Part shown: one piece after another, positions 15,025-59,447 of the stretch
How the letters are laid out: every line of letters starts with the position of its first letter
Position numbering within the stretch: position 1 is the first letter of the stretch
Assembly (NCBI GenBank): GCA_041671225.1
Contig: JBAZBY010000001.1
Span: 494,940-558,939 of the forward strand
Direction: 5' to 3'
DNA: 64,000 nt
From: Patescibacteria group bacterium
GTDB taxonomy: Bacteria > Patescibacteriota > Patescibacteriia > JBAZBY01
Program-made: the position numbers and the translations under genes
Notes under the pieces: model-generated
Seen by the model: the letters and a program-made list of their open reading frames with translations, nothing else
The model's database searches: none
Told to the model about the DNA's origin: nothing

Positions 15025-15474
15025 GTGCTTCTTATCGTTGGTATTGCGCTTTTTGGGCTCGCTGCCATAGATCAAATGGTCAAGGCATGGGTACTGCATC
15101 AACCCGACCCGATGATGATACTTCCGGGTTTTCTTGAGATACGCGCAGTAGAAAATCCAGGCATTATTTTTTCCCTTGTATTGCCACTGTGGCTCATTAT
15201 TCTTGGCAGCGTGGTAAGTGCCATACTACTTATGGTAGCACTCGTGCAGGCTCATAAGGCTGGTCATGAGCGTCTTGTAGTTTCCCTTTGTGCGCTCCTT
15301 GCAGGAGGCATGTCAAATCTATTGGATCGTTTTATGCGCGGCGCCGTTATTGATTATATTGCGCTTCCAAAGCCACTGCCCATTATTAATCTTGGGGATG
15401 TACTGGTTGTACTTGGTTTGGTGATGATGCTCATTGATGTATGGGGGAGAAGGAAAAAAGTAAAGAGTGATTGA
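15025..15474 (+). CDS. lspA: Lipoprotein signal peptidase (signal peptidase II)
   Basis: Four TM segments; motifs FLEIRAVENPGIIFS and SNLLDRFMRGAVIDYI. GTG start. Confidence 0.85.
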   Translation: MLLIVGIALFGLAAIDQMVKAWVLHQPDPMMILPGFLEIRAVENPGIIFSLVLPLWLIILGSVVSAILLMVALVQAHKAGHERLVVSLCALLAGGMSNLLDRFMRGAVIDYIALPKPLPIINLGDVLVVLGLVMMLIDVWGRRKKVKSD

Positions 15475-15532
15475 CAAGTTCTGCATGATTTTGTAATGTG
15501 CCTTTAGAGACCCGGCGGCATACCGGGTTTTT

Positions 15533-18351: not shown

Positions 18352-18642
18352 CAGGATACTGAGTGCTGTTTTGGAGAATTGAATGGAGATACTTTGTCCT
18401 TTTCCGCATCAGACACTGCCCTGCGATTTGGGTCTTTACCCCCTCCCTATGGAGTGTTCCAGAAGCCTGAAACATCACAGCAGCACCTCTATGCGATTTT
18501 GAGAACCAAGCAATACTACCCTGGTGTATATTGCCTGTCAAGGCGTTTATTTGTGCTTCAAAAACAACCTTTTTTGCTTTTCGAGTCGCTCCTGATTTGG
18601 TATACTGCAGGTGCACAAAAGGGGACTTACGAGCATTTTTGT

Positions 18643-31363: not shown

Positions 31364-31386
31364 TGAGACTTAAGGAGGTGAAATAT

Positions 31387-40869: not shown

Positions 40870-43800
40870 ATGCAGAAACACCTGCACAATCTACGAAATA
40901 TTCTCAACCGCGTTTTTGGCATACGAGCGCCTCATAAACGCGTTGTTCTGTTGGTAGGCGTTCTGTCCGTTGCCGTAGGCGTCTTTTTTGCGTTGCAGTT
41001 CGTGAAGGCAGATGCCGGAGAAACCGTTGTTCGCATTGCAACCAATGCATTCACAAGTCTTCTTGCGGAGATCGTTATTTATATTGACAAACTTCTTGCG
41101 CGCCTGCTTGTGGTGCTTTCCAACATCATGATAGCCGCTGCGTCATATAATGATTTTGTGAATGCTCCGGCAGTTGAGAAGGGCTGGACGATCGTGCGCG
41201 ATCTCGCAAATATGTTCTTCATTGTCGTGCTTCTGGTCATTTCTTTTGGCACGATCCTTCGCATTCAGCAGTATCGCTTTCAGCAGACGTTGCCGCGCTT
41301 CATCATTTGGGCGGTACTCATCAACTTTTCCAAGTTCATCGCCGGCGTGTGGATCGATTTTGCGCAGGTCATCACGCTGACGTTTGTGAATGCATTTAGA
41401 GATGCCGCTGCGGGGAATATCGTGGATGCCTTTGGGTTGCGCGAGATGCTCACCTTTTTGAATGATGGATCCACGATCAGCGCAGATGCAGGCGATGTTC
41501 TTGGTGCGGTTATCCTTTCGCTCGCGTTGCTCATCATTGCAAACGTCGTTATTTTTTCTCTTGCAATCACCTTTCTTTTTCGCATCGTTGCCTTGTGGCT
41601 CTTGGTGGTGCTCTCTCCGATCGCGTATGTGACGCGCACGTTTCCGAATGCGACAAAGTATTCTGATCAGTGGTGGACAATGTTCAACAAATATGTGATG
41701 ACCGGCCCTGTGCTTGCCTTCTTTATTTGGCTCGCCTTGACGATTATCGCGACGCCGGGACCGGATAATCTCCCTTATTTGCAGGGCGTCGTCGGCACTA
41801 TTGATGATGCGACCCAGACAGCCGGGTATGACGTTGTTAATGCGACCAGTGCCGGCGGTTATGGACTTGCCGCGTCAATCAGCGCAATTAGCAGTAGCGA
41901 TCGCCTGCTTTCTTTTATACTTTCGATCGGGCTTTTTATCTCAGCTTTGATGGCGACGCAACAGCTTGGTGTGATGGGCAGCGGCGTCGCTGGTTCCGCG
42001 CTGAAGGGCATTCAGAAGGGCGCGCTGGGGACCGCACGCTGGGTTGCGCGGAGACCAGGAGCCATGGGTTCATGGACTGCAAGAAAGATCAAGGCGGGTC
42101 GCGCGCCAGGGCCGCTGAAGAGACTTGCTGGCGTTGATTTTAACCCCGCCAATTTTGTGCGAGGCGTTCGCAAGGGTATGGCAAACAAGCGCATTGAAGA
42201 AGAACTGGAAGGTACGCGCGAATCTGGCGCCAAGGCAAGGCAATCCGGGGGACTCAAAGCTGCGATTTATGCCGGGGGAACCCCAGAAGATTTTCAGCGG
42301 GAATACATGAGCGGATTCATCTATAATCGCGGGCTTCAACGTTTGGGCATGAATGCTTCAGAAAAAGCCGAATCGATCAGAACACAGGCTTTGGAAGAAA
42401 AAAAGAAAAAAGAATCCCTTGAGATGCTTGCGCAAACTCCGGATCCCGAGACCTACATGGAGAATGATTTGAATAGCAGGATAGATATTCATGAACAGGA
42501 ATTAAAAGCGAAAACTAATCAGATCGAGGAAGGCGATACTATTGAGAAAAGGCTTCTTGTTCGCCGAGATGCACTTGAGAAGCTGAAAAAGCCAAAAGAG
42601 GGGCAAGCAGTAGACCAAAATAAGGTCGAAGCTGAAGAGGCAGCTATTGCGGACTTGGAAGTGAAAAAACAGACCTTCTTGGAGAATAAAAAGAATTTTG
42701 GGGAACAGTGGGAGGAGGATAGAGCTGCTTTGGACACAGAATTGACGGCATTGAAGACACAGCGGGCTTCGGTTTTTGGCGTAGGAGCAGACGGTACGCC
42801 AGCGCTGGACCCGAACGACAGATATACAGCAGCCATGCAGTATGTTGAGGAGCAACACCAAAAGAAGGTCGTAGAACGAGACCGCGTTCAACGCGGCGGC
42901 ATTACTGACGCACAAATAGAAGAGCGCAAGGCTCTGATACGAGCAGCACGGCAGAAGGACAGAACAGCAGCAAAGGAACAAGATTCTCTTATTGAAAAAA
43001 AGGATACTGCGCATCCTGAGGAGCTTGCAAAGCTCAATGCGCAGCTTGAAGAGTTGCAGAAATTACGGGAGGGCATTGCAGCATGGATGGCGCGAATTGA
43101 TGATGGCGGGAAAACGCGATTAACACGTGACGATTATAAGAACCATCAACAGACATTGGGCGAGGGCAGGGAGACAGAAGATGAGAGGTTCAAAAAGGAA
43201 GAAATAGACGTTGATGGCAAAAAAACTGGGCGCACCATGGGCGAGGCGTTGATTAAGGGATTAAATGAGGCATTGACCGAAGACACAGAGCAGCTCGATG
43301 CCATGAGAACCATTACAGAGGCACAGCGGGAGCAATATAGAATACTGGCCGCAGAAGCAGGCACAGCACAGAAGAAATTGGAAGATAAGGCCATGGAAGC
43401 ATCAAAATGGGTGTTTCAGGACTTTAGCGCTCGCGCCGCGGGCCGCACTGCCGCGTCTATTGCAGCCAAAAATGTTGATACAGAAAATGAACATGAGCTT
43501 ATCCAGCTTTTTAAATCTGCATTGAATAATGATGACAAAGGTTTGGCAGAAGCAGTGATGCGGGAAGCAGCAGCAGTGGGGCACTTGAATGAATTGGTGA
43601 ATGCAGAGGGATTCATCGCGAACCAGGACGGGCTTAATCAGTTTGTTAATAAGACCCTTGTTGATAAGCTCGGCATGGACAAGCAAATTGCTTATGGCAT
43701 CCAGAATGACGCTTCAGAAATGGCGCAGCGAATTAATCACTGGACCTTTGCGCAATCTGTCGGCGTCAAGAGCGGACAATATTATCAACGCACTCCGTAT

Positions 43801-44205
43801 GAACAGGGAATGCGTTCAGCAGTTGAAATGTCCAAGAAGGATCCTGAAGGTGTTGTGCGGCAATCGAACCGCCTTGGGTATGGAGGGGAGGATCCCAGCG
43901 GAGCTTTTCATATCTCTGAAGTAGGTTTGCATATGATCGCAAAAGGATATAAATCCATTCAAAGCCAGTTTAGTCGCGGCCGCTATAACCGCAGCGCAGC
44001 AATGAAACTCGTTACCCCGGAGACCTTCTCAAGACTGCAGAGCCTTATGTATACGGATCTCATCGATGACAAGCGGCTTTACAGAAAGTTCTTGAATGAA
44101 TTGCTCTCATATGCGGCAGGCTCTGCAGACACGCTGGGTGCAGAAAGCAGGGCAGTGAGTAGGCTGCTTGATCACGCGGTGCCTCGGGATCTTCCAAACG
44201 TTTAA
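40870..44205 (+). CDS. VirB6/TrbL-like polytopic membrane protein with long coiled-coil hydrophilic C-terminal extension
   Basis: N-terminal about 330 aa with at least 6 TM helices and an early periplasmic loop, as in VirB6/TrbL. The remaining roughly 780 aa are charged and heptad-rich (EELQKLREGIAAW..., KKLEDKAME...). Confidence 0.65.
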   Translation: MQKHLHNLRNILNRVFGIRAPHKRVVLLVGVLSVAVGVFFALQFVKADAGETVVRIATNAFTSLLAEIVIYIDKLLARLLVVLSNIMIAAASYNDFVNAPAVEKGWTIVRDLANMFFIVVLLVISFGTILRIQQYRFQQTLPRFIIWAVLINFSKFIAGVWIDFAQVITLTFVNAFRDAAAGNIVDAFGLREMLTFLNDGSTISADAGDVLGAVILSLALLIIANVVIFSLAITFLFRIVALWLLVVLSPIAYVTRTFPNATKYSDQWWTMFNKYVMTGPVLAFFIWLALTIIATPGPDNLPYLQGVVGTIDDATQTAGYDVVNATSAGGYGLAASISAISSSDRLLSFILSIGLFISALMATQQLGVMGSGVAGSALKGIQKGALGTARWVARRPGAMGSWTARKIKAGRAPGPLKRLAGVDFNPANFVRGVRKGMANKRIEEELEGTRESGAKARQSGGLKAAIYAGGTPEDFQREYMSGFIYNRGLQRLGMNASEKAESIRTQALEEKKKKESLEMLAQTPDPETYMENDLNSRIDIHEQELKAKTNQIEEGDTIEKRLLVRRDALEKLKKPKEGQAVDQNKVEAEEAAIADLEVKKQTFLENKKNFGEQWEEDRAALDTELTALKTQRASVFGVGADGTPALDPNDRYTAAMQYVEEQHQKKVVERDRVQRGGITDAQIEERKALIRAARQKDRTAAKEQDSLIEKKDTAHPEELAKLNAQLEELQKLREGIAAWMARIDDGGKTRLTRDDYKNHQQTLGEGRETEDERFKKEEIDVDGKKTGRTMGEALIKGLNEALTEDTEQLDAMRTITEAQREQYRILAAEAGTAQKKLEDKAMEASKWVFQDFSARAAGRTAASIAAKNVDTENEHELIQLFKSALNNDDKGLAEAVMREAAAVGHLNELVNAEGFIANQDGLNQFVNKTLVDKLGMDKQIAYGIQNDASEMAQRINHWTFAQSVGVKSGQYYQRTPYEQGMRSAVEMSKKDPEGVVRQSNRLGYGGEDPSGAFHISEVGLHMIAKGYKSIQSQFSRGRYNRSAAMKLVTPETFSRLQSLMYTDLIDDKRLYRKFLNELLSYAAGSADTLGAESRAVSRLLDHAVPRDLPNV

Positions 44206-44219
44206 TCATTATCTCGCGT

Positions 44220-45575
44220 ATGGCAGTTGTAACTGACAAAGCACTAGAGGACGAAAATATTCTCCGCGAACTCAAGGAGAGCATGGATGATATTCTTCTT
44301 TTTGATGATGTGGTCACTGCGGAGAAAGCCATGGTGAATTTGGAGACCTTTTTCTCCGAGTATAAGAATTTTCGCAACAAAAATCCGCAACTGTATGCGC
44401 GTTATCAGGATATATTGACGCTCGCGCGATGGGTTTCCCTCGCTGCGCTGAATGATGACAAAGTGGTTCGTTTGTTTCATGAAGATTTGCCGATCATTCT
44501 TCGCCACGGCGAATATGACATTTTCAACAAACTTGATCTCCTGCTCATCAAGCAGAGCACGCTAGAACGGCGTGATGAGATTCGTGGAAAGTTGCGCCAG
44601 GCAATGATCACGAGTGAGGCTGATCTCACCACAGCCGCCATTAAGAAGCAGGAAAGCTTGGTAGCAGGAACGGTCGGGGGGTGGATAAATGATTATAATG
44701 CGTTTGTTGGTGCAGAAAAAAAGCAAATAGATAGCATGAAGCGCACGACATACTTTGTGCAAAGCCCAACACTGCCGAAGATATCTGAGAATGAGAAGAT
44801 TCTTGTTCGACGCATGCTTGATATCTATGAATATTTGAAGCTTTCATCCGGGGATCTCATTGGGTTTGAAGAAAAGATTCCGATCGATGATGAAGGAACT
44901 GAAGGGTGGGTCTATCGTGGGTCCTTTCAACCGATCGATAAGAATATCGTCAATGAGTATCGCGCTCTCATGCGGAGTATTCAGGAAGATGTCCAGCGCA
45001 CCGCATCATCAGGAGAAGCGGCAACTGGCGCAGAGCAAGGAAACATCCAAAAGGAGATCATTGCCGCGCAGCAAAAGTATCAAAAACTGCTCATGGCAGT
45101 CCACAATGAGGAGAAGCAACTCATAAAAGAAGCAGAAGGAAAGACTGACATGCTTTTTGACATTCTCTTTGACGAGAATCTTAAGGCAAGTTCCATGAAG
45201 AAAGTTGGGGCGCTTGTTGCCTGTGCGCGCATGACGGCTCTTGATGAACTTTTTCAGGATGCGCGCGCCGCGCTGTATGTTGAAAGCCATGTGTTGCCGC
45301 ATATTCTGGAGGGAAAAGTTTCCACAAAAGCATTGCAAGAGGATTTTAAACGTAAAAAGTTTTCCCCCGCGTATAAAAAGGAATTACTGAAGGCGCTGTT
45401 GCAAGACGCCTTGAAGAAGGAAGAAGACGCAGCAATGCTGTATCAGCAGATTGTGAACCTTGCCGGTGATAAAGATCAGGCGGATTTATTGGGCGGGAGT
45501 TTCTACAATGTTTCTCTGCATCAGTACAGCTTTCAAGCAAGCGCCTGGAGAGACGACGGGCTTGTCAATGCATAG
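44220..45575 (+). CDS. Hypothetical protein within the T4SS-like locus
   Basis: 451 aa, co-directional and tightly spaced; no motif recognised. Confidence 0.6.
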   Translation: MAVVTDKALEDENILRELKESMDDILLFDDVVTAEKAMVNLETFFSEYKNFRNKNPQLYARYQDILTLARWVSLAALNDDKVVRLFHEDLPIILRHGEYDIFNKLDLLLIKQSTLERRDEIRGKLRQAMITSEADLTTAAIKKQESLVAGTVGGWINDYNAFVGAEKKQIDSMKRTTYFVQSPTLPKISENEKILVRRMLDIYEYLKLSSGDLIGFEEKIPIDDEGTEGWVYRGSFQPIDKNIVNEYRALMRSIQEDVQRTASSGEAATGAEQGNIQKEIIAAQQKYQKLLMAVHNEEKQLIKEAEGKTDMLFDILFDENLKASSMKKVGALVACARMTALDELFQDARAALYVESHVLPHILEGKVSTKALQEDFKRKKFSPAYKKELLKALLQDALKKEEDAAMLYQQIVNLAGDKDQADLLGGSFYNVSLHQYSFQASAWRDDGLVNA

Positions 45576-45577
45576 GT

Positions 45578-45877
45578 ATGAATATTTCGATCCCTCAGCC
45601 GGCATATCAGCCAGTAGTGCTTCTTCGTGCTGCAGGATATGCGCCATTTCGCGACCCAAAGACCGGTGAAGGTTCATTTGTGCGGCGACTTGGCACAGAA
45701 TTTTATCCGCGATTCCATATTTATGTGATAAAGGACACGGATGATGTTTTGGACCTTACGCTGCATTTGGATCAACGGCGCCCAAGCTATACTGGCAGCC
45801 GCGCACACAATGGTGAGTACGACGGACCGCAGATTGAGGCGGAGAGGACGAGGATTCTTTCACGTATTCCACAGTAA
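45578..45877 (+). CDS. Hypothetical small protein
   Basis: 99 aa ORF starting 3 nt after the upstream stop; no motif recognised. Confidence 0.4.
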   Translation: MNISIPQPAYQPVVLLRAAGYAPFRDPKTGEGSFVRRLGTEFYPRFHIYVIKDTDDVLDLTLHLDQRRPSYTGSRAHNGEYDGPQIEAERTRILSRIPQ

Positions 45878-45882
45878 GCAGC

Positions 45883-45911
45883 ATAAATATATTGCGGAGA
45901 TGCGGTGTTTT
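45883..45911 (+). promoter_or_regulatory. Promoter-like element with extended -10 (TTGCGG-17-TGgTATAAT)
   Basis: TTGCGG 45883-45888, 17-nt spacer, TATAAT 45906-45911 preceded by TGG. Confidence 0.4.
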
Positions 45912-46018
45912 TGGTATAATCAGCGCATACAACATGGATATTTTCATCTGCATTTCCTATAAAAATCCCGCAAAAGCAGATGAAAGGGGGCGGTACGGTT
46001 TTATGATGACTGCACTCG

Positions 46019-46046
46019 TCCCGGAAAGGCCGGGATTTCTTTTTTC
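46019..46046 (+). terminator. Rho-independent terminator (TCCCGG-AAAGG-CCGGGA then TTTCTTTTTT)
   Basis: Clean GC stem plus a run of T. It sits only about 100 nt downstream of the promoter at 45883-45911 and just before the gene at 46053. Confidence 0.6.
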
Positions 46047-46052
46047 AATCAA

Positions 46053-47912
46053 ATGATAGACGCAGCAACGCTTGCGACTATAGACCTCAAAACAACTGAG
46101 GGCGAGGAAGCAGTGCGCCGTATCGTTCATGATACGGTACGGTTTGGCGAGGCGCGAGCAGCGTTTCGTACTGCACAGGCACTGACCGTACGCATCAAGG
46201 GAGAAGGCACGCTTGAGAGGCAGTATGCTCAGTTATTAGCGCTTCTGAAGGCCGCGGCTCTCCCACTTTTAAGCGACGAAGGGGCGGTTACCGTCTTTGG
46301 GGAGTATTTACCGTATATTTTGAGTCAGCCGGATATTGACCTTATCCATGGTCTTCGCATGAGGGCGATTGGCATGCCAGAAGAGGATCTCCGCAGATTT
46401 TTTGCCGATGTCATAAGCGCAATGGCCGCAGCGCAGACTGCACTCACAGATGTGCCATTACAAATGGATGATGGTTCAGCGCGCCCACCAACACTTGCAA
46501 GCTGGATTATGGTTTTGCGCATCGCATTGCAAGACAGTTCCGCTGAAAAGGTTGCCTCAAGCCCGCTTCTTGAGAAGCTTACGGGTGAAGACAAGCAGAA
46601 GGTGCTGCGATTGACGCATCTTGTGGCCATTGTTGAGAAACTTGCCAAGGGCGAGATGCAGCCTGAAGGAATTATGATTCGTGAAGCAAATGGAAGCATG
46701 AAAGTGCTTTCAGAAGGTGGCGCTGTTCCGGTAATGGGAACCGCGCTTCCTGCAGCAGCACCTCTTCAAGAAGAACCGCCTCTACCCCAACCAGAACACA
46801 CAGAGCAACCAGCCGAGACTGTTCCAACACCAGAGCCAACACCAGAGCCAGAGGCGCCGCCCATTCCTGTTTCAAAACCAACACTTCCGCCTCAAGCGGT
46901 AGCCTCGCCAGCGGCTCCTGCTGAACTAGGTCCGATTGCACAAACGCAATATTCACTTGATGACGAAGAAGAGATCCAGCGGCACATGGAGCGTTTACGT
47001 GATATTGGAAGTGAGCCGTCCGCGGATCAGGTACTTGATGCAAAGGTTGCAGATTTGATACGCGAACAGAATCTGCAGTTTGATGATGAGAATCTGAAAA
47101 GTCGTTTTCAGATGATGATCAAAACATACATCAAGGGCATCCGTAATGGCGTAGAAACCGAAGAAATTCTTTGCCGCCCCGAAAAAATTGGCGGTATGGG
47201 ATATGACAAAGAGCAGGCGCACGCCATTATGGAATCAGCAAAGAAGCAGATTGCAAAACGCAAGGATGATGCCGGTGTGAGGGAACTTGTTGAGGAGGCG
47301 CGCACGATCGAAGAAGCTCCGGAGGGCATGCCATCTGCACCAACCATCCCTTCTGCGCCGCAAGTGCCCATCGTTCCTCCTATTGTCATGCCGGAAAAGC
47401 CAAAGATTGAGACAACAACGCAGAACATCCCAACATCAGTACCAGTTGTACCAGATCCACAAAAGAATGCGGGAGCATCTATCGAGAAACGGGCAGTGAC
47501 GTTTTCGCAATCCGGGGGGAGCGGACTTTTTCGCCGCGCACGTGGCCTGAAGCCGGCAGTGGACGATATTAAGGCACCAAAAAAATTAGCCGGTCCAACA
47601 GAGGAGATTCGCTCTATGTCATTAGAAGACTTTCAGAAGTTGGGACCAACGCCGCGAGATCGGGTTCAGAAACTTTTTAGCCGCTTTGTTTCACTCCAGA
47701 AGGAATCCTTTGCGTTGCGCATGGAAGGCGTGAGCGCCTGGCGCAAGAGCCCCGTGTACCAACAATATCTGGATATTGGCGGTGAGAGTATGAATACGAG
47801 TCAAAGTATTGCCGATGTTATTGCCGCCCGGGTACAAAAGGGTATGCCAACACTCACCACAGATGATTTTCATTATATTGCCGACTTAAACCGGCAGCTC
47901 CAGTTCCACTAA
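46053..47912 (+). CDS. Hypothetical protein with a central Pro-rich linker
   Basis: 619 aa; PEPTPEPEAPPIPVSKPTLPPQ linker between two alpha-rich regions. Confidence 0.6.
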   Translation: MIDAATLATIDLKTTEGEEAVRRIVHDTVRFGEARAAFRTAQALTVRIKGEGTLERQYAQLLALLKAAALPLLSDEGAVTVFGEYLPYILSQPDIDLIHGLRMRAIGMPEEDLRRFFADVISAMAAAQTALTDVPLQMDDGSARPPTLASWIMVLRIALQDSSAEKVASSPLLEKLTGEDKQKVLRLTHLVAIVEKLAKGEMQPEGIMIREANGSMKVLSEGGAVPVMGTALPAAAPLQEEPPLPQPEHTEQPAETVPTPEPTPEPEAPPIPVSKPTLPPQAVASPAAPAELGPIAQTQYSLDDEEEIQRHMERLRDIGSEPSADQVLDAKVADLIREQNLQFDDENLKSRFQMMIKTYIKGIRNGVETEEILCRPEKIGGMGYDKEQAHAIMESAKKQIAKRKDDAGVRELVEEARTIEEAPEGMPSAPTIPSAPQVPIVPPIVMPEKPKIETTTQNIPTSVPVVPDPQKNAGASIEKRAVTFSQSGGSGLFRRARGLKPAVDDIKAPKKLAGPTEEIRSMSLEDFQKLGPTPRDRVQKLFSRFVSLQKESFALRMEGVSAWRKSPVYQQYLDIGGESMNTSQSIADVIAARVQKGMPTLTTDDFHYIADLNRQLQFH

Positions 47913-47921
47913 GGAATATAT

Positions 47922-48383
47922 ATGCCAATGCAGTTCATCGTTCCGCAGTTCATCGATGTTGAGGATAAGATCCTTGGTCCTCTTTCTGTGCGGCAGTTTA
48001 TTATGTTTCTTGTGGGCGCGGCGCTTATTTATATCGACTATGAATTGATGTATCACCTTGCTGGTAATTTTTGGTTCTTTCTTGTTTCAGCGATTGCGCT
48101 CTTTGGACTTACGGGAGTGTTCGCCTTTTTGAGAATCAACGGCAGACCTTTTCATTGGTTTTTATTGGCGATCATCGTGAATTTTCGCGACCCAAAATTA
48201 CGTATCTGGTCAAAATATGTTCCGAACGACGAATTAAAGCGAAAGAAGGAAAAAATTGATAACGGACCGGATATTCCCATGAAGCCTGGCGTGACGCAAT
48301 CTCAGCTGCAACGTCTTGCGCTTATTGTGGATACCGGCGGCGCGTTTACTGATGATGTCCCCGAAAAAAAACCTAAGAGGTAA
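47922..48383 (+). CDS. VirB3/PrgI-like small membrane protein
   Basis: 153 aa with two TM helices (FIMFLVGAALIYIDYELMY; FWFFLVSAIALFGLTGVFAFL). Lies immediately upstream of VirB4, the conserved VirB3 position. Confidence 0.55.
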   Translation: MPMQFIVPQFIDVEDKILGPLSVRQFIMFLVGAALIYIDYELMYHLAGNFWFFLVSAIALFGLTGVFAFLRINGRPFHWFLLAIIVNFRDPKLRIWSKYVPNDELKRKKEKIDNGPDIPMKPGVTQSQLQRLALIVDTGGAFTDDVPEKKPKR

Positions 48384-48385
48384 TT

Positions 48386-49063
48386 ATGGAACGCAAACTA
48401 CGCAAACCAAAACAAGCATCGACACAAGAGTATCTTCGTATTCAGGAGATCAAGGATGATGTCGTGGTGATGAAGGACGGAAGTCTTCGCGGCGTTTTGC
48501 TTGTTGCGTCGGTAAACTTTGCCCTCAAGAGTGACGACGAGCAGATTGCCGTTATTCAGTCGTATACGCAGTTTTTGAATGCTCTTACGTTTCCCTTGCA
48601 AATCGTTATCCAATCGCGCAAATTGAATGTGGATGAGTATTTGAACCGTCTTCGTGAGGTTGAGAAAGCACAAACGAATGATTTACTGAAGATGCAGACG
48701 GCGGAGTACGTGCAGTATATTAAGGAGCTTGTGGAAATCGCCGACATTATGTCGAAGCGTTTTTATGTGGTGGTGCCGTTTTATCCAGGAGAGAACGAAC
48801 GAACGCCGGCGAAGTTTTTTGGACGTTTTTTTCAGGCATTGTCGCCAACAAGCATCATCCATCTGAAGCAAAAGCAGTTCATTGATTTGCGCACAGAACT
48901 CATGAAGCGCATTGATTATATCATTGAGGGTCTTTCTGAATCCGGCTTAAAAAGCGTTTTACTCAATACGCAGAGCCTCATTGAGCTTTATTACAATACC
49001 TATAATCCAGAAGTGTACAGCCAAGAGCAATTACTTGATGTTTCAAAGATTCAAATAGACTAA
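48386..49063 (+). CDS. VirB4/TraC/TrbE N-terminal domain (separate ORF)
   Basis: VLLVASVNFALKSDDEQIAVIQSYTQFLNALTFPLQIVIQS...RFYVVVPFY, typical of the VirB4 N-domain. Stops 1 nt before the ATPase ORF and is in a different frame. Confidence 0.7.
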   Translation: MERKLRKPKQASTQEYLRIQEIKDDVVVMKDGSLRGVLLVASVNFALKSDDEQIAVIQSYTQFLNALTFPLQIVIQSRKLNVDEYLNRLREVEKAQTNDLLKMQTAEYVQYIKELVEIADIMSKRFYVVVPFYPGENERTPAKFFGRFFQALSPTSIIHLKQKQFIDLRTELMKRIDYIIEGLSESGLKSVLLNTQSLIELYYNTYNPEVYSQEQLLDVSKIQID

Positions 49064-49064
49064 C

Positions 49065-51047
49065 ATGGCAGAAATCGACCTCTCCAAAGCAGGAAAGCTC
49101 CGCGAGCCTCAACGCAAGGTTTCTATTGAGGAGCGTCAGAAGCAGGAACAGCAACACCTGCAAAAGCAAAAACAACTTCTTGAAGCTGAGCGGTTGTATC
49201 GGGAGGGTGTTGTCTCCGTTCGTGATCTGATAGCCCCAGCCGCCATGAAGGTGGAAAATGATTATATTCGTTTGGGCAGCAAGTTTGTCCGTACGGTGTT
49301 TGTGGTGACGTATCCTCGCTATATTGCCGTTGGATGGTTTTCACCGATCATTACTCTGAACTATACATTGGATATTGGCATGTTCTTCTATCCTGTGGAT
49401 TCCGCGGTTATTTTAAAGCAGCTGAAGAATAAAGTCGGCGCTCTTGAGGCGCAGATTCTCGCCGATGCAGAAAAGGGTGCGCCGCGTGATCCTCTTCGTG
49501 AAACCGCGCTCCGCGACATTGAAAAACTCCGCGATGATCTCACCCAAGGCACAGAGAAGTTCTTTCAATATGCGCTCTATATCACCATCTATGCAGATGA
49601 TAAGAAAGACCTTGATCGTCAGACAGAAAAGGTAGAATCACTTTTTGGCGCACGACTGGTGTATACAAAGCGCGCGCTCTTTCAATCTGAACAGGGTTTT
49701 AATGCCACAGTGCCGATGGGAGAAGATGAACTCATGGTGACCTTCAACATGAATTCTTCGCCTGTTGCAAGTTCCTTCCCGTTCGTTTCAAGTGACCTCA
49801 CGAGTGATAACGGCATTCTTTACGGCATTAACCGCCATAATAACTCACTGATTCTTTTTGACCGCTTTAGCCTGCAGAATGCGAATTCCGTGGTGTTTGC
49901 AACCGCTGGCGCTGGAAAGAGTTATGCCGTGAAACTGGAGATCCTGCGTTCACTTATGCTTGGGACGGAAATCATTGTCATCGATCCTGAAATGGAATAC
50001 AAACATCTTTCTGAGGCGGTGGGCGGAACATATATTAGCATCTCACTCAACGCGGATTCCAAGATTAATCCTTTTGATCTCCCCAGTGCCCTGCAGGGTG
50101 ATGAAAAACCGGCTGATATCATCCGGTCCGCCGTCATCACGTTAAAATCGCTGCTGCGCCTCATGCTCGGCGAACTGACGCATGAAGAAGACTCCATCAT
50201 TGACCGCGCGTTGCTTGAAACGTATGCCAAGAAGGACATCACTCCGGATGCGGATCTTTCCAATATTGAAGCCCCGCTCATGACGGATTTTCAGGAAGTG
50301 CTTTCTGGCATGGAGGGCGCGGATGGATTAGTTGAACGTTTAAAAAAGTATACTGAGGGGACGTTCTCTGGCTTGTTTAATAGCCCGACGAATGTTGAAC
50401 TTAAGAATAATCTCGTCGTGTTCTCTGTGCGTGACCTTGAGGATGAACTGCGCCCGATCGGCATCTCAACGATTATTTCGTATATTTGGAATATCGCGCG
50501 CTCCAGGCTCAAGAAGCGTCTTTTAGTCATTGATGAAGCCTGGTGGCTGATGCAGCATGAAGACTCGGCAAAGTTTATCTACGCACTGGTCAAGCGCGCA
50601 CGAAAGTATTATTTGGGCGTTACCACCATTACGCAGGACGTGAATGACTTCTTACGTTCGCCATATGGCCAGGCCATCATTAACAACTCAGCCTTGCAGT
50701 TGCTCATGAAGCAGTCACGATCCGGGATCGATATTGTCGCCAAGACATTCATTCTCACAGAAGGTGAGAAGTATTTGTTGCTGGAATCCGGCGTTGGTGA
50801 AGGTATCTTCTTTGCCGGTTCTAAACACGCTGCGATCAAAGTTGTTGCTTCGTATACAGAAGATCAGATTATTACATCAGATCCGCGCCAGCTTCTTGAA
50901 ATTGAGGATGCAAAAAAAGAGTTTGAGGCATCATTGGATAGTAACGAGGAAGATGGTATTGAGGATATCTTTGATGCGGAAGAAAAATTGAACCCAATGA
51001 GTCCTGAAGAGCGGGAGATCCAGGAGATGCGTACTACAAAGCGATGA
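49065..51047 (+). CDS. VirB4-like type IV secretion ATPase (C-terminal ATPase domain)
   Basis: Walker A FATAGAGKSYAV and Walker B LLVIDEAWWLM. Conserved VirB4 blocks: YIRLGSKFVRTVFVVTYP, ITQDVNDFL. Confidence 0.85.
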   Translation: MAEIDLSKAGKLREPQRKVSIEERQKQEQQHLQKQKQLLEAERLYREGVVSVRDLIAPAAMKVENDYIRLGSKFVRTVFVVTYPRYIAVGWFSPIITLNYTLDIGMFFYPVDSAVILKQLKNKVGALEAQILADAEKGAPRDPLRETALRDIEKLRDDLTQGTEKFFQYALYITIYADDKKDLDRQTEKVESLFGARLVYTKRALFQSEQGFNATVPMGEDELMVTFNMNSSPVASSFPFVSSDLTSDNGILYGINRHNNSLILFDRFSLQNANSVVFATAGAGKSYAVKLEILRSLMLGTEIIVIDPEMEYKHLSEAVGGTYISISLNADSKINPFDLPSALQGDEKPADIIRSAVITLKSLLRLMLGELTHEEDSIIDRALLETYAKKDITPDADLSNIEAPLMTDFQEVLSGMEGADGLVERLKKYTEGTFSGLFNSPTNVELKNNLVVFSVRDLEDELRPIGISTIISYIWNIARSRLKKRLLVIDEAWWLMQHEDSAKFIYALVKRARKYYLGVTTITQDVNDFLRSPYGQAIINNSALQLLMKQSRSGIDIVAKTFILTEGEKYLLLESGVGEGIFFAGSKHAAIKVVASYTEDQIITSDPRQLLEIEDAKKEFEASLDSNEEDGIEDIFDAEEKLNPMSPEEREIQEMRTTKR

Positions 51048-51619
51048 GTCCCGCCATCCGTATTACACTGATTTTTGTGAGTATTATCCTTGTTGGGGGG
51101 ATCGGACTCGGTTTACTGCTCTTTAAAGATTCATCACCAGACACCGTTCAGGACACTCTTCCGGAGAACGAAGATGTCGTGCCTGCGACGACACCGACAA
51201 ATTCCAGTATATCGGAGGATGCGCCCGTTATTGAACCAGAGGCGAATACGACGCAGCAGATTCGCAACGTTGCCATCATTTTTTCAGAACGTTTTGAAAG
51301 CTATAATGAAAACGCGCGCGAAGCAGTGCTCCCCAGCGTTCAAGCGTATCTCACGGATGCAAGCCTTGTGACGCTCACAAGAGAGGCCGAATATCTTGCT
51401 ACACAGCCGAATGTTGAAAAGCCGAACGTCTACACTGCTCAAGCGTTCAATGTTTCCATTGTTGATGAGCAGCCAGCTCGGGCAACGGTTGATGTTTCAC
51501 TTTTTGTAGAAACTTCTATAGGAGCGTCAATTGAGGTGACCTCTACGGAGCAACGTACACGACGATATATCCTTATCCAAGAAAATGAGAACTGGAAAAT
51601 AATAAATGCCATTTTCTAA
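51044..51619 (+). CDS. Bitopic membrane protein, candidate VirB8-like (NTF2-like) component
   Basis: N-terminal TM helix IRITLIFVSIILVGGIGLGLLLF followed by about a 150-aa mixed alpha/beta domain ending ...ENENWKIINAIF. Position and topology are consistent with VirB8 (low confidence). Confidence 0.45.
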   Translation: MSPAIRITLIFVSIILVGGIGLGLLLFKDSSPDTVQDTLPENEDVVPATTPTNSSISEDAPVIEPEANTTQQIRNVAIIFSERFESYNENAREAVLPSVQAYLTDASLVTLTREAEYLATQPNVEKPNVYTAQAFNVSIVDEQPARATVDVSLFVETSIGASIEVTSTEQRTRRYILIQENENWKIINAIF

Positions 51620-52916
51620 GCGCGCCATCTTAACTTTTCTTCTCCTGCTTTTGGCGGTACTTTTTCTTGTGCCTGCAGGAGATGTGCATGCACAAGAACA
51701 CGAGATTCAGTTGAGCGTGGATCTGCCCGGCACGTCGCCATGCAGCTATGATGCAACAAAAAAATGTGTTGCGGATTTTGGTGATTATATGGCGAACTTT
51801 TACCGCTGGTTTGTGAGCGTTTCTGGCGTGCTTGCGATCGCAATGCTTGTGATGGGCGGATTCATGTGGATAACCGCAACAGGAAACAGCAGCAAAATCG
51901 AATCCGCAAAGGATGTGATTAACAGTGCGCTTTCTGGCGTGGTTCTTTTGATGCTTTCTTTTTTGTTCTTGCAACTCATCAACCCGCAGATTCTTTCATT
52001 GCGTCTTCCTATTCCCGGCATCACGGGTAGCGATTTTTTTCTTGATAGTACGATACTGTGCAACGGCCGTGCGATATTGGAAGACAGGGATACGGCGACC
52101 TGCGGGGACATTGTGTCCTTAGACATTGCAACAGCGGTTGGCGTGAAACAGCCTTGTATCTGGAATGAATGCAAAGATCCAAAGGAAGTCTGCGCGCCTA
52201 ATCCAAAAGTAGGGAAATATGAATGCCTGACTCCGATCAAGGGCTGCACGTACTCAAAACCAAAGGATTGCCAGGCAGTTGACCTTATTTTTCAAAATAC
52301 CGTACCTCCCGTGACTGAAGGGGGGAAAGTGTTTTCCTGCCGCACGCGTAACCTCACAGATGCCATTCCTCTTATTGGGTATGAAGATGACTGCAGCCCT
52401 GGCCCAATATGGTCAACATATGCGCCTCTTCCCGTAAAAGACCTGGTTGATAGCCGTATTGCGGATTCTGGGTATCAATGTGGTGATGACGCAGACTGGA
52501 TGCGCGTTACGTGCGATGCCGGTAAAGGAAGAAAAACAGAGTGTTGGCGTCCGGATGATGGTGGTCCGAGAGAGGAAACAAAGAGCATTAATGATCCATG
52601 GTGGGCGCAGTTGGATAACCATATGGCTGTTTCCTATATCAAGGCACGCTTAACATGCACAGATGCTGCACGGGCGAATCAAACGTCAGACATGGTTTGC
52701 TGCGGTCAGCGCGATAAAGGTCAGATTGATTGTCGGGGTATTGAAGAAAAAATCGATGAGAATGAAATTGCCGTACCTTGTGATTATTACAATACCCTGA
52801 CTGACGAGTATGACGGAAAACTTTCTACGAATAGCAAAGCAAAAGATAAGAACGCCACACGAGACTGGTGTGATGATATTTGCTTTATGCAAATAGATAT
52901 TAAATTTGGGCTCTAA
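51606..52916 (+). CDS. VirB2/TrbC-like pilin-motif protein fused to a large Cys-rich extracellular domain
   Basis: Signal peptide, then the hairpin-helix motif WFVSVSGVLAIAMLVMGGFMWITATGNSSKIESAKDVINSALSGVVLLMLSFLFLQLINP. About 280 aa Cys-rich C-terminal region. Confidence 0.65.
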   Translation: MPFSKRAILTFLLLLLAVLFLVPAGDVHAQEHEIQLSVDLPGTSPCSYDATKKCVADFGDYMANFYRWFVSVSGVLAIAMLVMGGFMWITATGNSSKIESAKDVINSALSGVVLLMLSFLFLQLINPQILSLRLPIPGITGSDFFLDSTILCNGRAILEDRDTATCGDIVSLDIATAVGVKQPCIWNECKDPKEVCAPNPKVGKYECLTPIKGCTYSKPKDCQAVDLIFQNTVPPVTEGGKVFSCRTRNLTDAIPLIGYEDDCSPGPIWSTYAPLPVKDLVDSRIADSGYQCGDDADWMRVTCDAGKGRKTECWRPDDGGPREETKSINDPWWAQLDNHMAVSYIKARLTCTDAARANQTSDMVCCGQRDKGQIDCRGIEEKIDENEIAVPCDYYNTLTDEYDGKLSTNSKAKDKNATRDWCDDICFMQIDIKFGL

Positions 52917-52919
52917 AAT

Positions 52920-54167
52920 ATGAATCGTTCACGGCTTCAGACGCTTCTCTATTTGGCGGCATTCATCATCACCGTTTTGCTTTTCATATTTGCGATATAT
53001 TGGTTGTTTTTTAGGACCGCTCCATCCACAAATACAAATGACAATGCAAACGAAAACGTGAATGGCTTGCCGAACGTGAATGCGGCAAATTTCAATGTCA
53101 ATGGAAACGCAAATGCGAATATTGCCTTACCGAATGTGAATACCACCGATCTCATAGATCGCATTGCTCAGGGCGGTTTCACACAGACCAACCTCGTTAC
53201 GGAAAATGCCGTCATTGCTCCAAGTTTTGGATCGAACGATCAGGATCTTGTTTTTTACGACACCGCTGAAGATAAGTTTTATCGTCGTACGCAAGATGGA
53301 CGTTCACAAACATTGCTCACTGAAGAGACCTTCCCCGAGGTTGAGTCGATAGCATGGTCACCAACAGGCGATAGGGCGGTGCTCACATTCCCTGATGACA
53401 CAAAACTCTATTATAACTTTGCCACGCAAGAGAAGGCGACGCTGCCAAAGGAGTTGAATGATATTTCTTTCTCGCAACAGGGCACGCAGATCGCCTCAAA
53501 GTTCGTAGGATCAGAAACCACTGATACGTGGCTGACGGTCTCGAATCCAGACGGAACAGGCGCAGAGATCCTTGAAAGCCTTGGTGAGAATGAAAGTCTT
53601 GTGGACGTCAACTGGTCGCCAACGCAACAAGTCGTGGCAACGTATCACCGCGGGACATCCTTTGATGCCGAAGAGGTTATTTTTCTTGGCAAAGAGGGAG
53701 AGAATTTCCCTTCCGTGAATGTACCCGGCCGCGGTTTTGAAGGAATTTGGAGCAGCGATGGACGGAAGATGCTCTATTCTGTGTACGCCCCTGAGACGCG
53801 CAACGTCCCGCAGATCTATTTTATGGATGCATCGGGGGATAATTTTGGCACAAATCATCAGACACTTGCACTTGAAACATGGGCGGACAAATGCACTTTC
53901 TCGCTTACCGGTACGAATGTGTATTGTGCGGTGCCGAACTTCTTGCCAAGCAGCTCCGGTTTTGACCGTGCACTTGCATTAGGTATCCCGGATGATATCT
54001 ATAAAATTGATCTTATCAATGGGCGCGCGGACAGAATCGCAACGCCGGTTGATTCCCGCGGCCTTGCAACCGTTACTGCTTCTGACCTTCTCGTTTCTCC
54101 TGCTGAAGATGTGCTGTATTTCAAAAGCGAGAGTGACGGGAAAGTTTATACCCTTAATCTTCGATAA
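52920..54167 (+). CDS. TolB-like beta-propeller protein with N-terminal TM anchor and Asn-rich low-complexity linker
   Basis: TM helix LYLAAFIITVLLFIFAIYWLFF. NVN-type repeats NANENVNGLPNVNAANFNVNGNANANIALPNVN. PD40/TolB-like blades (WSPTGDRAVLTF, WSPTQQVVATYH, WSSDGRKMLYSV). Confidence 0.7.
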   Translation: MNRSRLQTLLYLAAFIITVLLFIFAIYWLFFRTAPSTNTNDNANENVNGLPNVNAANFNVNGNANANIALPNVNTTDLIDRIAQGGFTQTNLVTENAVIAPSFGSNDQDLVFYDTAEDKFYRRTQDGRSQTLLTEETFPEVESIAWSPTGDRAVLTFPDDTKLYYNFATQEKATLPKELNDISFSQQGTQIASKFVGSETTDTWLTVSNPDGTGAEILESLGENESLVDVNWSPTQQVVATYHRGTSFDAEEVIFLGKEGENFPSVNVPGRGFEGIWSSDGRKMLYSVYAPETRNVPQIYFMDASGDNFGTNHQTLALETWADKCTFSLTGTNVYCAVPNFLPSSSGFDRALALGIPDDIYKIDLINGRADRIATPVDSRGLATVTASDLLVSPAEDVLYFKSESDGKVYTLNLR

Positions 54168-54264
54168 GTGCGCGATTCACTCACTGGCTATCTTCTTATC
54201 GCGATCGGCGCACTCTTCTTGCTCATACTGATTGTGCAACAATTTAAGTCGGCCTCATGATATT

Positions 54265-55551
54265 ATGAAACGTTCTCTCCTTTTTATCTCTTTTTTCATA
54301 CTTGTCGGCCTTAGTTTTGCGAGGCCGGTTTTTGCAGAGGGGTGTTGCGTGGGGCCAACGGCAGCATATTTTCTTTTTGATAATAATCAATGCCTTAATG
54401 AGGCCTCACCTCCTGGCCGCTGGGATGCGCATCAGTACCCGGACAGCATAACAGGCAAGTGCGAGCTGATGGTTGGCGCGGACGAGAGGGCGCTCGTTAT
54501 TGGTAAGTCCATTGCGACTCAGGTTGCAGAAAAGCCCCCGCTTATTTTTATTCCGAGCGTTGAGATACCGGGACTCTTCACTGGCCCCATTGTGGTTGGC
54601 AATGAGACATTAGGGCAGTATATCGCGGCGTTTTATATGTTTTTTGTCGGTCTCACGGGAGTGCTCGCAATGGCTATGTTGGTTTATTCTGGATTCCGGC
54701 GCATTACGGCAGCAGGGAACTCAAGCAAAGTACAGGAATCAACAGATATCATGAATGCCGCGCTTTCAGGCGTGGTACTGGTGATGCTCTCATATTTGCT
54801 GCTCAATCTCATTAATCCAGCACTGACGCGTCTTGCGGGCATGCAGCTTGATCCCATTAAGCCGGTATTGTTTTCATTTGAATCATCGGCTCATTCATTG
54901 AGGGACGCGAGTGTTTGCGGTGTTGGGGTGAACCCCGCAACAGGGGAACTTGTCGGTTTTCAGGATGATATTTATGAGTATGATGATATTTTTAAGGAGG
55001 TTGGTGATGCAAAAGGGGTGATGCCAAGCCTTTTAAAGGCGATCATGATAGTAGAGTCATGTGGGGATCCAGATGCAGCAAGCGTTCTGGAAGATGGTAC
55101 AAATGGCGGATGTGGTCTTATGCAGGTGAATCCAAAAAACAACACAACGGGCGGTTCTGGTTGTGACGGTCTCAGAACACCCGCAATTGAACCGACAGAT
55201 TCTGACGCCGTTAAAGAAGCAAAGCTAAAAATCATCAAAGCGAATATCACGCGTGGCGCAGAGATTATTGTACACGCGTATAAAAAAACATGTCCAGAAA
55301 CGGCGCGATATGAGTCTGGTGAAGTTGTGCAGTGCGATCATCAAAAGAGTGGCTGTATTGTGGGTGCTGATCGTTATGCCATTGCTGCGTATAATGGAGG
55401 CACTGGTGCAAATTGTAACAGCAGTGATTGTCAGGGAGAGACTTGGTGGGAGTGTAAGAATAATGATGGTTTTGCAGCAACACGACAGTATGTATCGAGT
55501 ATTGTGGCAGCGCACAATATGATCAGAAATAGAAATTGGATTCCGGATTAA
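54265..55551 (+). CDS. Pilin-motif protein fused to a lytic transglycosylase (SLT, VirB1-like) domain
   Basis: Signal peptide MKRSLLFISFFILVGLSFARPVFA. Pilin motif FFVGLTGVLAMAMLVYSGFRRITAAGNSSKVQESTDIMNAALSGVVLVMLSYLLLNLINP, paralogous to 51606-52916. SLT catalytic motifs IVESCGDPDAAS...GGCGLMQVNP. Confidence 0.75.
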   Translation: MKRSLLFISFFILVGLSFARPVFAEGCCVGPTAAYFLFDNNQCLNEASPPGRWDAHQYPDSITGKCELMVGADERALVIGKSIATQVAEKPPLIFIPSVEIPGLFTGPIVVGNETLGQYIAAFYMFFVGLTGVLAMAMLVYSGFRRITAAGNSSKVQESTDIMNAALSGVVLVMLSYLLLNLINPALTRLAGMQLDPIKPVLFSFESSAHSLRDASVCGVGVNPATGELVGFQDDIYEYDDIFKEVGDAKGVMPSLLKAIMIVESCGDPDAASVLEDGTNGGCGLMQVNPKNNTTGGSGCDGLRTPAIEPTDSDAVKEAKLKIIKANITRGAEIIVHAYKKTCPETARYESGEVVQCDHQKSGCIVGADRYAIAAYNGGTGANCNSSDCQGETWWECKNNDGFAATRQYVSSIVAAHNMIRNRNWIPD

Positions 55552-59357: not shown

Positions 59358-59447
59358 AATCTTGATTTTTCAGATAAAAAATTTGAAAAACCTTATTTTT
59401 TGGGAGACTTTTTTGCCTTTATCTCCCTATGTATCGTATTGTCGGGA

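Follow-up and report, generated by a model that had tools for sequence, protein, structure and literature searches.

Is a type IV secretion (T4SS) locus without recognisable conjugation genes still a conjugation machine, or does it serve contact with a host cell? The question was raised by a gene cluster in a stretch of 64,000 nucleotides (the window) of a Patescibacteria contig of about 1.03 Mb, whose nearest named relatives are Ca. Kerfeldbacteria and Falkowbacteria, not Saccharibacteria. We take such an organism to belong to the class ABY1 (GTDB). A sequence-only reading of the window had proposed a contact apparatus rather than a conjugation machine; this function, an inference here as in the literature, is supported by agreement with the published reading of Patescibacteria T4SSs. 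We consider it probable that the locus is a vertically inherited chromosomal T4SS of the kind typical of ultra-small Patescibacteria (CPR), in a Kerfeldbacteria-like layout, and that it serves exchange with a host upon contact, not the conjugative export of DNA. The system is related to the Gram-positive conjugation machinery (MPF-FATA) and has already been published, including its non-conjugative host-interaction reading (Wang 2023; Quinonero-Coronel 2025; 2025 FEMS review). The locus adds an ABY1-type example to the known Patescibacteria T4SSs and is not a new system.

As had been described, eleven co-directional ORFs (A to K) fill exactly positions 40870-55551 (Table 1). They are tightly packed, with neighbours spaced by -14 to +14 nt, except between C and D (175 nt) and between J and K. 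The latter gap measures 97 nt from the ATG at which K was called and 64 nt from the TTG at 54232 that begins the mechanical ORF. The giant surface-protein genes noted immediately upstream, then put at about 15 kb, comprise three ORFs totalling 15.2 kb (25670-40868). The start of G2 overlaps the stop of G1 by 1 nt, and G3 ends 1 nt short of A; the giants overlap or abut one another and the first T4SS gene. From gene spacing only, we infer that G1 to G3 are translationally coupled to each other and to the T4SS genes.

Table 1. Genes of the T4SS locus and of the adjoining surface-protein block (window coordinates).
Gene	Coordinates	Strand	Assignment	Features and support
G1	25670..31363	+	Giant secreted protein (predicted)	1897 aa; cleavable-looking signal peptide; 73 Cys; CBM_4_9
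G2	31363..36492	+	Giant secreted protein (predicted)	1709 aa; fn3 x2; BNR/YCF48-like propeller; Big_7; 38 Cys
G3	36492..40868	+	Giant secreted protein (predicted)	1458 aa; fn3-like N-terminus; 67 Cys
A	40870..44205	+	Extended VirB6/TrbL-like polytopic membrane protein	TrbL matches in orthologues
B	44220..45575	+	Cytoplasmic protein, no family	N-terminal ~180 aa paralogous to D N-terminus
C	45578..45877	+	Small conserved protein, no family	99 aa
D	46053..47912	+	Cytoplasmic Pro-rich protein, no family	Paralogous domain with B
E	47922..48383	+	PrgI family (VirB3 equivalent)	PrgI 36.6 bits (cutoff 27); 2 TM segments
F	48386..49063	+	TrsD/TraC-like, detached VirB4 N-terminal domain	TrsD/TraD 9e-7
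G	49065..51047	+	VirB4 ATPase, CD1110 family	conju_CD1110 362 bits (cutoff 325)
H	51044..51619	+	Bitopic VirB8-like protein	N-terminal TM segment; disordered linker; NTF2-like domain (residues 67-190)
I	51606..52916	+	Signal peptide, VirB2-type hairpin, ~300-aa Cys-rich ectodomain	T4SS_pilin 27.7 bits
J	52920..54167	+	PD40/TolB-like beta-propeller with N-terminal TM anchor	PD40 in orthologues
K	54265..55551	+	Signal peptide, Cys-rich N-terminal segment, VirB2-type hairpin, SLT lytic transglycosylase	T4SS_pilin 27.9 bits

All component identifications made earlier from motifs (VirB6, VirB3, VirB4, VirB2, propeller, and SLT) were confirmed by HMM or structure evidence, with VirB4 and VirB2 matched directly and VirB6 through orthologues. 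The window copy of A gave no direct Pfam or NCBIfam match; however, TrbL/VirB6 was matched by 9 of 35 orthologous N-terminal regions (best 3.9e-7), and the orthologue at locus L002 carries a precomputed weak TrbL match, so the VirB6 identity of A is transitive. About seven TM (hydrophobic) segments were located in the first ~365 aa of this protein, followed by a hydrophilic, charged, Cys-free tail of ~750 aa that is probably cytoplasmic. For comparison we used 82 related loci around virB4, in which PrgI (E) was found 79 times and the F gene lay next to virB4 in every case; PF26593 was present in orthologues of F. When aligned with full-length VirB4 models, F covered the N-terminal part and G the adjoining rest (positions 98-280 and 279-893 of NF045975; positions 3-165 and 237-727 of TIGR00929). 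The ATPase G matched P-loop_TraG (4e-29) and has intact Walker A (ATAGAGKS, residue 279) and Walker B (LLVIDE, residue 486) motifs. Its sequence identity is 70-89% with thousands of Patescibacteria VirB4 proteins, whereas the best plasmid VirB4 of Firmicutes/Actinobacteria, the nearest outside CPR, reach no more than 28-35%. These values, rather than a tree, strongly suggest that G belongs to a Patescibacteria VirB4 clade sister to MPF-FATA. The VirB8 call on H, tentative at first, was upheld by HMM or structure evidence: the protein is bitopic, its NTF2-like domain is extracytoplasmic, and it is encoded in a T4SS cluster. Among related loci with a readable next gene, a VirB8-fold gene directly follows virB4 in 53 of 54. 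The locus encodes a full monoderm translocon, with A as VirB6-like channel protein, E as PrgI/VirB3, F and G as a split VirB4 motor, and H as a VirB8-fold scaffold. To call it minimal was misleading, since it holds the whole monoderm core (equivalents of VirB1, 2, 3, 4, 6, and 8).

Profile searches with B, C, and D gave no family. The N-termini of B and D aligned with each other (hhalign probability 98.5%, E 3.3e-15). In 75 of the 82 related loci D, which has conserved blocks at about aa 300-420 and 500-618, is the gene immediately before prgI. Invariant residues in C are H47, H63, D65, H77, and E80; its low-confidence model resembles secretion-chaperone/YbjN folds, a lead only.

The remaining genes encode a surface module composed of the Sec-exported hairpin proteins I and K and the membrane-anchored propeller J. 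Both hairpins scored above the T4SS_pilin (PF18895) cutoff of 26.6 bits. The SLT domain of K (2e-10) has the ES, GLMQ, and AYNGG motifs, and K amounts to a VirB2-VirB1 fusion. J itself fell below the PD40/propeller threshold, and 11 of 22 orthologues matched PD40. Near virB4 in relatives, 39 of 40 hairpin proteins matched PF18895 (best 2.7e-12), and these 40 included fusions to SLT (seven), VanY/M15 (three), and a 3D domain (one); dozens of clusters at 50% identity contain the pilin-SLT architecture. I and K measure 428-436 aa, compared with ~100-185 aa for known pilins, including the six short pilins of Southlakia, and only one short pilin occurs across the 82 loci. The hairpin proteins may be membrane anchors rather than polymerising pilins. 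Signal peptides and many Cys residues are common to I (22 Cys in the whole protein), K, and G1 to G3, each giant having a signal-peptide-like N-terminus; in the cytoplasmic components Cys is limited to 0-1 residues. A DsbA-like gene inserted within the T4SS locus of one relative (L001) fits this Cys-rich surface module. The giants are predicted to be Cys-rich, glycan-binding-type secreted proteins, and 28 related loci have collinear segments homologous to G3 upstream of their virB6-like gene.

Could a conventional conjugative or integrative element be present, with its coupling protein, relaxase, and oriT outside the window? The VirB4 family of G (CD1110) is named for such elements, a tyrosine recombinase is encoded at 3941-4912, and T4CP homologues are common in Patescibacteria genomes, usually far from virB4, according to statements in a 2025 survey (PMC12102498). 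A T4CP gene may thus sit in another part of the ~1.03 Mb genome. When every window ORF of at least 150 aa resembling a real gene was scanned with profiles, none matched VirD4, VirB11, VirB9/10, or relaxase families, as had been claimed, and Walker A motifs among window ORFs of at least 100 aa were confined to Cmk, ComM, VirB4, and RecG. No T4CP-like ATPase was found within 10 kb of virB4 in any of the 82 related loci; together with the lack of relaxase, VirD4, and VirB11 in the window, this argues that the system is not conjugative. The same survey text reports that thousands of Patescibacteria genomes yielded only 109 relaxases, seldom close to virB4, and describes most of its 2,474 virB4 loci as lacking a relaxase (PMC12102498). 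The recombinase, the only one in the window, is XerC/D-like and 36 kb from the locus. Housekeeping genes (ksgA, leuS, pnp, recG, and a tRNA) flank the locus, GC is 0.45-0.51 there and alike in the flanks, with no GC island, gene order and neighbourhood are kept across the 82 loci, and VirB4 is far more conserved (median identity 74%) than the adjoining RecG (42.5%). These features point to chromosomal location and vertical inheritance. The recG/radA neighbourhood also recurs at loci whose VirB4 is just 70-79% identical to that of the window, and we regard a conjugative element as very improbable.

That neighbourhood bears on another reading, namely a DNA-uptake T4SS like Helicobacter ComB or archaeal Ced, importing host or environmental DNA for processing by RadA, RecG, and ComM. 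A composition without T4CP, VirB11, and relaxase would suit an importer. recG lies next to the T4SS genes in 44 of the 82 related loci, and radA is co-directional and directly downstream in 43 of the 46 relatives where it was found, a position that points toward a DNA-processing link; natural transformation of S. pneumoniae needs RadA. ComM is encoded in the window (15533-17065), and comF, recG, and radA are noted at ABY1 T4SS loci in the survey's text (PMC12102498). However, radA, the usual operon end in relatives, was not found in the 64-kb window, recG there is convergent with the T4SS genes and not co-transcribed, and ComM is 25 kb away. G scored only 45.6 bits on CedB (cutoff 700), VirB9 and VirB10 were not matched, and neither ComB nor Ced is known for muralytic heads or giant glycan-binding proteins. 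Southlakia cells without comEC lose competence but stay viable, whereas their T4SS is essential (PMC10633639, PMC12857230), so its essential role is not ComEC-dependent DNA uptake. On balance, DNA import seems unlikely. A surface machine only, in which VirB4 and its partners insert or assemble hairpin-anchored hydrolases and adhesins by which the cell attaches and remodels the wall, with no channel substrate, would suit the long hairpin fusions to hydrolases or Cys-rich domains, the near absence of short pilins, and the lack of a coupling protein for recruiting cytoplasmic substrates. The gene set is also that of the classical T4SS pilus-biogenesis subset. The cytoplasmic-type tail of A, the extreme conservation of VirB4, and the conserved cytoplasmic B, C, and D, hard to explain without cytoplasmic recruitment, speak against it, and we hold this reading to be unlikely.

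For contact-dependent host exchange, the preferred reading, we propose that VirB4, docked on VirB3, VirB6, and VirB8, would extract the hairpin proteins from the membrane, after which they would be assembled into a wall-spanning surface structure. In Agrobacterium, this set of components is enough for pilus biogenesis without VirD4. The fused muralytic head (SLT) would open the peptidoglycan of the cell itself or of its host, and the giants and the ectodomain of I would hold the host surface. Through the assembled structure, exchange with the host cell, not conjugative DNA export, would follow contact. A more specific and quite doubtful elaboration is that the ABY1-type VirB2 hairpin has turned into a carrier of enzymatic and adhesive heads (pilin-SLT, pilin-M15/VanY, pilin-3D, and a pilin with a Cys-rich domain may be such heads), giving an armed, wall-piercing filament that acts as a feeding or effector conduit. 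This filament may breach host peptidoglycan, and B and D, together with the possibly chaperone-like C, may recruit cargo in place of a coupling protein.

The synteny comparison suggested for Saccharibacteria and other Patescibacteria revealed a common core order with Southlakia epibionticum as well as conservation across the 82 loci. The T4SS of Southlakia ML1 (Saccharimonadia; SEML1_0006-0019) is essential for epibiotic growth, and its cluster, like the window locus, is chromosomal, has PF18895 pilin-domain genes, and lacks a relaxase or coupling protein (Wang et al. 2023, PMC10633639). Both share the order of an extended VirB6-like protein (about 1,100 aa), PrgI, TrsD-like, VirB4, and a peptidoglycan hydrolase, with intervening genes, and both have an NTF2-like protein (SEML1_0012 in Southlakia). 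In Southlakia the NTF2-like gene stands between virB6 and prgI, in the window directly after virB4. Six short pilins (103-185 aa) form a divergent array in Southlakia, whereas the window has two hairpin proteins of ~430 aa with fused ectodomains, and the hydrolase is a separate lysozyme/glucosaminidase protein there and a hairpin-fused SLT here. The Southlakia table shows no evident counterparts of B, C, D, J, and G3. Essentiality has been shown only for the Southlakia system. A pilus conduit was proposed by the 2025 FEMS review (PMC12857230).

In its text, the 2025 survey likewise reaches a non-conjugative conclusion and notes recG, radA, and ksgA near virB4, and its ABY1 loci resemble the window locus: TrsD, PrgI, VirB6, and VirB2-like genes stand close to virB4, relaxase and T4CP are missing there, and ksgA, recG, and radA occur in the neighbourhood (PMC12102498). 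The survey counts only about 50 VirB8 homologues, mainly in ABY1, reports having detected no adhesins, and describes VirB1 as mostly missing (PMC12102498). Set against these statements, supplementary tables aside, the present loci differ in the VirB8-fold gene after virB4, the SLT, M15, and 3D domains fused to hairpins, and the syntenic giant upstream of virB6. The small additions of this analysis are the near-constant VirB8-like gene after virB4, the repeated fusion of pilin hairpins to peptidoglycan hydrolases, the Cys-rich giant syntenic upstream of virB6, the paralogous domain common to B and D, and the usual closing of the operon by radA in relatives but not in the window.

The MPF-FATA systems compared (TrsC-TrsD-TrsE of pGO1/pSK41, PrgH/I/J/L/K of pCF10, TraH/TraM/TraG of pIP501, and the C. 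difficile CD1110 family) share with the window locus a monoderm architecture without VirB7, VirB9, and VirB10, a PrgI-type VirB3, a separate TrsD beside VirB4, and a dedicated peptidoglycan hydrolase. However, a coupling protein (PcfC/TcpA type), a relaxase, an oriT, and a mobile-element location belong to those systems, and none of these was recognised at the window locus. In general descriptions they lack VirB2 pilins, unlike the hairpin-bearing window locus. The Pontibacillus megaplasmid cluster with the closest VirB4 does include an 'Mbov_0395 family pilin-like' gene, and its surroundings likewise show no annotated T4CP or relaxase. Like the window locus, Bordetella Ptl and Brucella VirB (effector export) and Helicobacter ComB and Sulfolobus Ced (DNA import) lack a VirD4-type coupling protein (PMC12857230). 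Ptl, VirB, and ComB, however, are diderm systems with an outer-membrane core of VirB7, VirB9, and VirB10, and Ced uses unrelated CedA proteins. ComB is also not known to have VirB11 or a relaxase. Hairpin-hydrolase fusions or reported growth essentiality are found in none of these four.

Eleven open reading frames, all on the forward strand, filled the locus, and those encoding proteins A to K overlapped or lay at most 14 nt apart, except that 175 nt separate C from D and 64-97 nt precede K. The sequence-only reading had described an eleven-ORF type IV secretion system (T4SS)-like locus immediately downstream of giant surface-protein genes; the ORF layout, HMM matches and, for H, fold comparison confirmed it, and three giant ORFs (G1 to G3) were found directly upstream of A, joined by one-base stop/start overlaps, with the third ending 1 base before A. 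No paralogy was detectable among G1, G2 and G3. The GC content of the T4SS locus (0.45-0.51) was the same as that of its flanks. H was 100% identical to the NCBI protein WCV86_03980 ("Patescibacteria group bacterium"), encoded on a contig of 1,028,488 bp, and the nearest named VirB4 relatives came from Ca. Kerfeldbacteria (78-79% identity) and Ca. Falkowbacteria (71-73%), both of which we take to belong to the GTDB class ABY1.

Coordinates of the features discussed, in window positions unless another sequence is named
Feature	Sequence	Positions	Strand
Surface-protein genes	window	103-4101; 9757-14517; 17062-18351	
Upstream flank, housekeeping genes (PNPase, Cmk, ComM, LeuRS, TsaC-like, KsgA)	window		
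Giant ORFs directly upstream of A	window	25670-31363; 31363-36492; 36492-40868	
T4SS locus, A to K	window	40870-55551	+
B	window	44220-45575	+
Promoter-like site in C-D gap	window	45980-46007	
Terminator-like hairpin with T-run in C-D gap	window	46018-46036	
D	window	46053-47912	+
GC-rich segment	window	55600-56620	
Inverted repeats (16 nt)	window	55720-55735; 56565-56580	
Orphan ORF	window	55778-56521	-
Downstream flank, housekeeping genes (RecG, tRNA-Arg)	window		
Giant Kelch-repeat ORF, extending past the window end	window	59445-64000	+
DsbA/thioredoxin-like gene	L001 (closest relative)	15079-15711	
radA	L002 (relative)	17268-18620	
radA	L050 (relative)	12514-13860	
Region around virB4, Pontibacillus megaplasmid	L084, NZ_CP062975.1	344328-370100	

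Protein A (1111 aa) has about seven hydrophobic segments in its first 365 residues, followed by a charged tail of about 750 aa without cysteines. It had no direct match in Pfam or NCBIfam, and its proposed VirB6/TrbL-like character was recovered through its orthologues: 9 of 35 orthologous N-terminal regions (29-41% identical to A) matched TrbL/VirB6, the best at 3.9e-7. A fits the "extended VirB6" type (PMC12857230). E, taken earlier for a VirB3-like protein, proved to belong to the PrgI family and has two TM segments. As claimed for an N-domain and an ATPase, F and G together are one VirB4, since F aligned with the N-terminal part of three full-length VirB4 models and G with the part that follows (NF045975, F on 98-280 and G on 279-893; TIGR00929, F on 3-165 and G on 237-727; CD1110, F on 2-118 and G on 152-730). 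F also matched TrsD/TraD, while G, in which Walker A and B are kept, scored 362 bits on the CD1110 equivalog model against a curated cutoff of 325. H, the bitopic VirB8-like candidate, was identified solely through fold comparison, and a VirB8-fold protein was nearly always encoded after virB4; profiles of the A, C, D and H families found no significant match among PDB sequences.

The surface module likewise bore out the expected pilin-motif protein and pilin-SLT fusion. I and K both passed the T4SS_pilin gathering score, carried cleavable-looking signal peptides and shared hairpins 59% identical over 75 aa. K adds an SLT domain (2e-10) with ES, GLMQ and AYNGG motifs, and I an ectodomain of about 300 aa, with 22 cysteines in the whole protein. 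J, between them, is a TM-anchored PD40 propeller, in agreement with the TolB-like assignment; its window copy fell below threshold, and 11 of 22 orthologues matched PD40. Hairpin proteins near virB4 in the clade were nearly all 277-520 aa long, the sole short one being a 110-aa pilin. T4SS_pilin was matched by 39 of these 40 proteins, and SLT was present in 7, VanY/Peptidase_M15 in 3 and a 3D domain in 1. The pilin-SLT architecture was common in a library of 1.84 billion proteins (56 matches at <=1e-30, most aligned over both domains). The exported proteins of the locus were Cys-rich and the cytoplasmic ones Cys-free. The closest relative has a DsbA/thioredoxin-like gene inserted between those for the propeller and the pilin-SLT protein, which fits disulfide-rich ectodomains; no dsbA remnant was found in the window.

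The cytoplasmic proteins B, C and D lacked TM segments, were nearly free of cysteine and matched no Pfam or NCBIfam family. Profile-profile comparison was the only means by which a relationship between B and D became detectable: hhalign aligned a common N-terminal domain of about 180 aa (probability 98.5%, E 3.3e-15), and BLASTP gave no similarity. B and D are a conserved pair of cytoplasmic paralogues. The gap separating C from D contains a terminator-like hairpin and a promoter-like site, which might divide the region into two transcription units; promoter and terminator scans of the window overall were not above shuffle expectation.

When the window proteins were compared by tblastn with 82 related loci, D-E-F-G formed an invariant core (F in 82/82, E in 79/82, D in 75/82). 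A was seen in 45 and a G3-like giant in 28 of the 82, most others being too short on that side to tell, and a giant surface protein was syntenic with the T4SS locus in relatives. The I-J-K module occurred in about 25 loci, chiefly where VirB4 was closest to that of the window. Compared with the window, VirB4 had a median identity of 74% and the neighbouring RecG one of 42.5%, indicating very strong constraint on the motor, whereas H was matched only once because of its fast divergence.

The reported absence of VirD4, VirB11, VirB9/10 and relaxase held up: none of these families was matched in a scan of every ORF of the 64-kb window that looked like a real gene. Walker-A motifs occurred in only four window ORFs of at least 100 aa (Cmk, ComM, VirB4 and RecG). 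Among ORFs of at least 250 aa within 10 kb on each side of virB4 in the 82 loci, P-loop proteins comprised VirB4 (82), RadA (45), RecG (38) and a small number of housekeeping proteins or chance matches, with no T4CP-like ATPase. The genomic context and conservation make it unlikely that a conventional conjugative element is hidden here. The best plasmid-borne VirB4 proteins were from Firmicutes and Actinobacteria (28-35% identity), and the top one, the closest outside the CPR at 35%, lies on an 898-kb "non-mobilizable" Pontibacillus megaplasmid. It is encoded in a compact cluster that also specifies an "Mbov_0395 family pilin-like" protein and an M23 peptidoglycan endopeptidase and lies next to flagellar genes. 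The annotation shows neither a T4CP nor a relaxase in the vicinity, and the cluster is possibly a further non-conjugative T4SS of a Gram-positive bacterium.

DNA import is the main alternative role, and radA lends it some weight: this gene was found in 46 of the 82 related loci, and in 43 of these it was co-directional with the T4SS genes and directly downstream, often straight after the virB8-like gene, a placement that suggests a recombination helicase co-transcribed with the T4SS. Falkowbacteria-like loci have a RadA-sized ORF (448 aa in L050) directly after the VirB8-like gene, with convergent recG next. Against DNA import stand the comEC result in Southlakia, the convergent orientation of recG (39 of 44 loci) and the window itself, in which no radA remnant was found.

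Pilus biogenesis in Agrobacterium requires the VirB proteins and not VirD4, and F-type systems lack VirB11. In the proposed contact-dependent exchange machine, VirB4 (F and G) on a VirB3/VirB6/VirB8 platform would pull hairpin proteins from the membrane and build a wall-spanning structure, the fused hydrolase would open the peptidoglycan, and the giant proteins, with carbohydrate-binding-type domains, and the I ectodomain would bind the partner cell. The parts list, topology, intact catalytic motifs, chromosomal context and conservation are established for this locus, which belongs to the known Patescibacteria T4SS kind, with minor variant features.

The reading as a contact or exchange apparatus rather than a conjugation machine is supported but not original; it is the current textbook view (PMC10633639, PMC12102498, PMC12857230). 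A homologous cluster in Southlakia epibionticum, Gram-positive-like in composition, with pilins and without coupling protein and relaxase, was essential for epibiotic growth by Tn-seq (Wang et al., 2023, PMC10633639). Quinonero-Coronel et al. (2025, PMC12102498) surveyed 2,474 virB4 genes, placed the Patescibacteria VirB4 clade next to MPF-FATA and catalogued TrsD, PrgI, VirB6, VirB2 and, chiefly in ABY1, a few VirB8 homologues. A 2025 FEMS review speculates that a pilus might act as a conduit for exchanging signals or for uptake from the host (PMC12857230). The Patescibacteria T4SS is the only one reported as essential to its carrier organism, and the present locus is a further, clear instance of its ABY1/Kerfeldbacteria-type layout. 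The VirB8-fold protein after virB4, the hairpin-hydrolase fusions, the syntenic giant surface protein and the cytoplasmic paralogue pair are testable details that narrow the parts list for complex structure prediction, cryo-ET and biochemistry, leaving the current picture of the system unchanged.

At the position of radA in relatives, the window has a GC-rich segment (58-61% vs about 48%) bounded by inverted repeats that are 94% complementary and enclose an orphan 247-aa ORF with no Pfam or NCBIfam match; radA may have been displaced by this segment, as a small insertion element. Rfam found only one tRNA in the window at gathering thresholds. An apparent ORF desert at 59-64 kb was ruled out as non-coding DNA or an alternative genetic code; the stretch is occupied by a giant ORF (1518 aa or more; GC 56-57%, above the rest of the window) whose product has numerous Kelch repeats (Kelch_6, 7e-32) and a TM segment at its N-terminus. 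Surface genes elsewhere in the window encode dockerin/cohesin/Big-domain proteins, a type IV pilin-like N_methyl protein, a 1586-aa CarboxypepD_reg/FG-GAP giant and an M23-LysM peptidase, so that cell-surface functions abound throughout the region.
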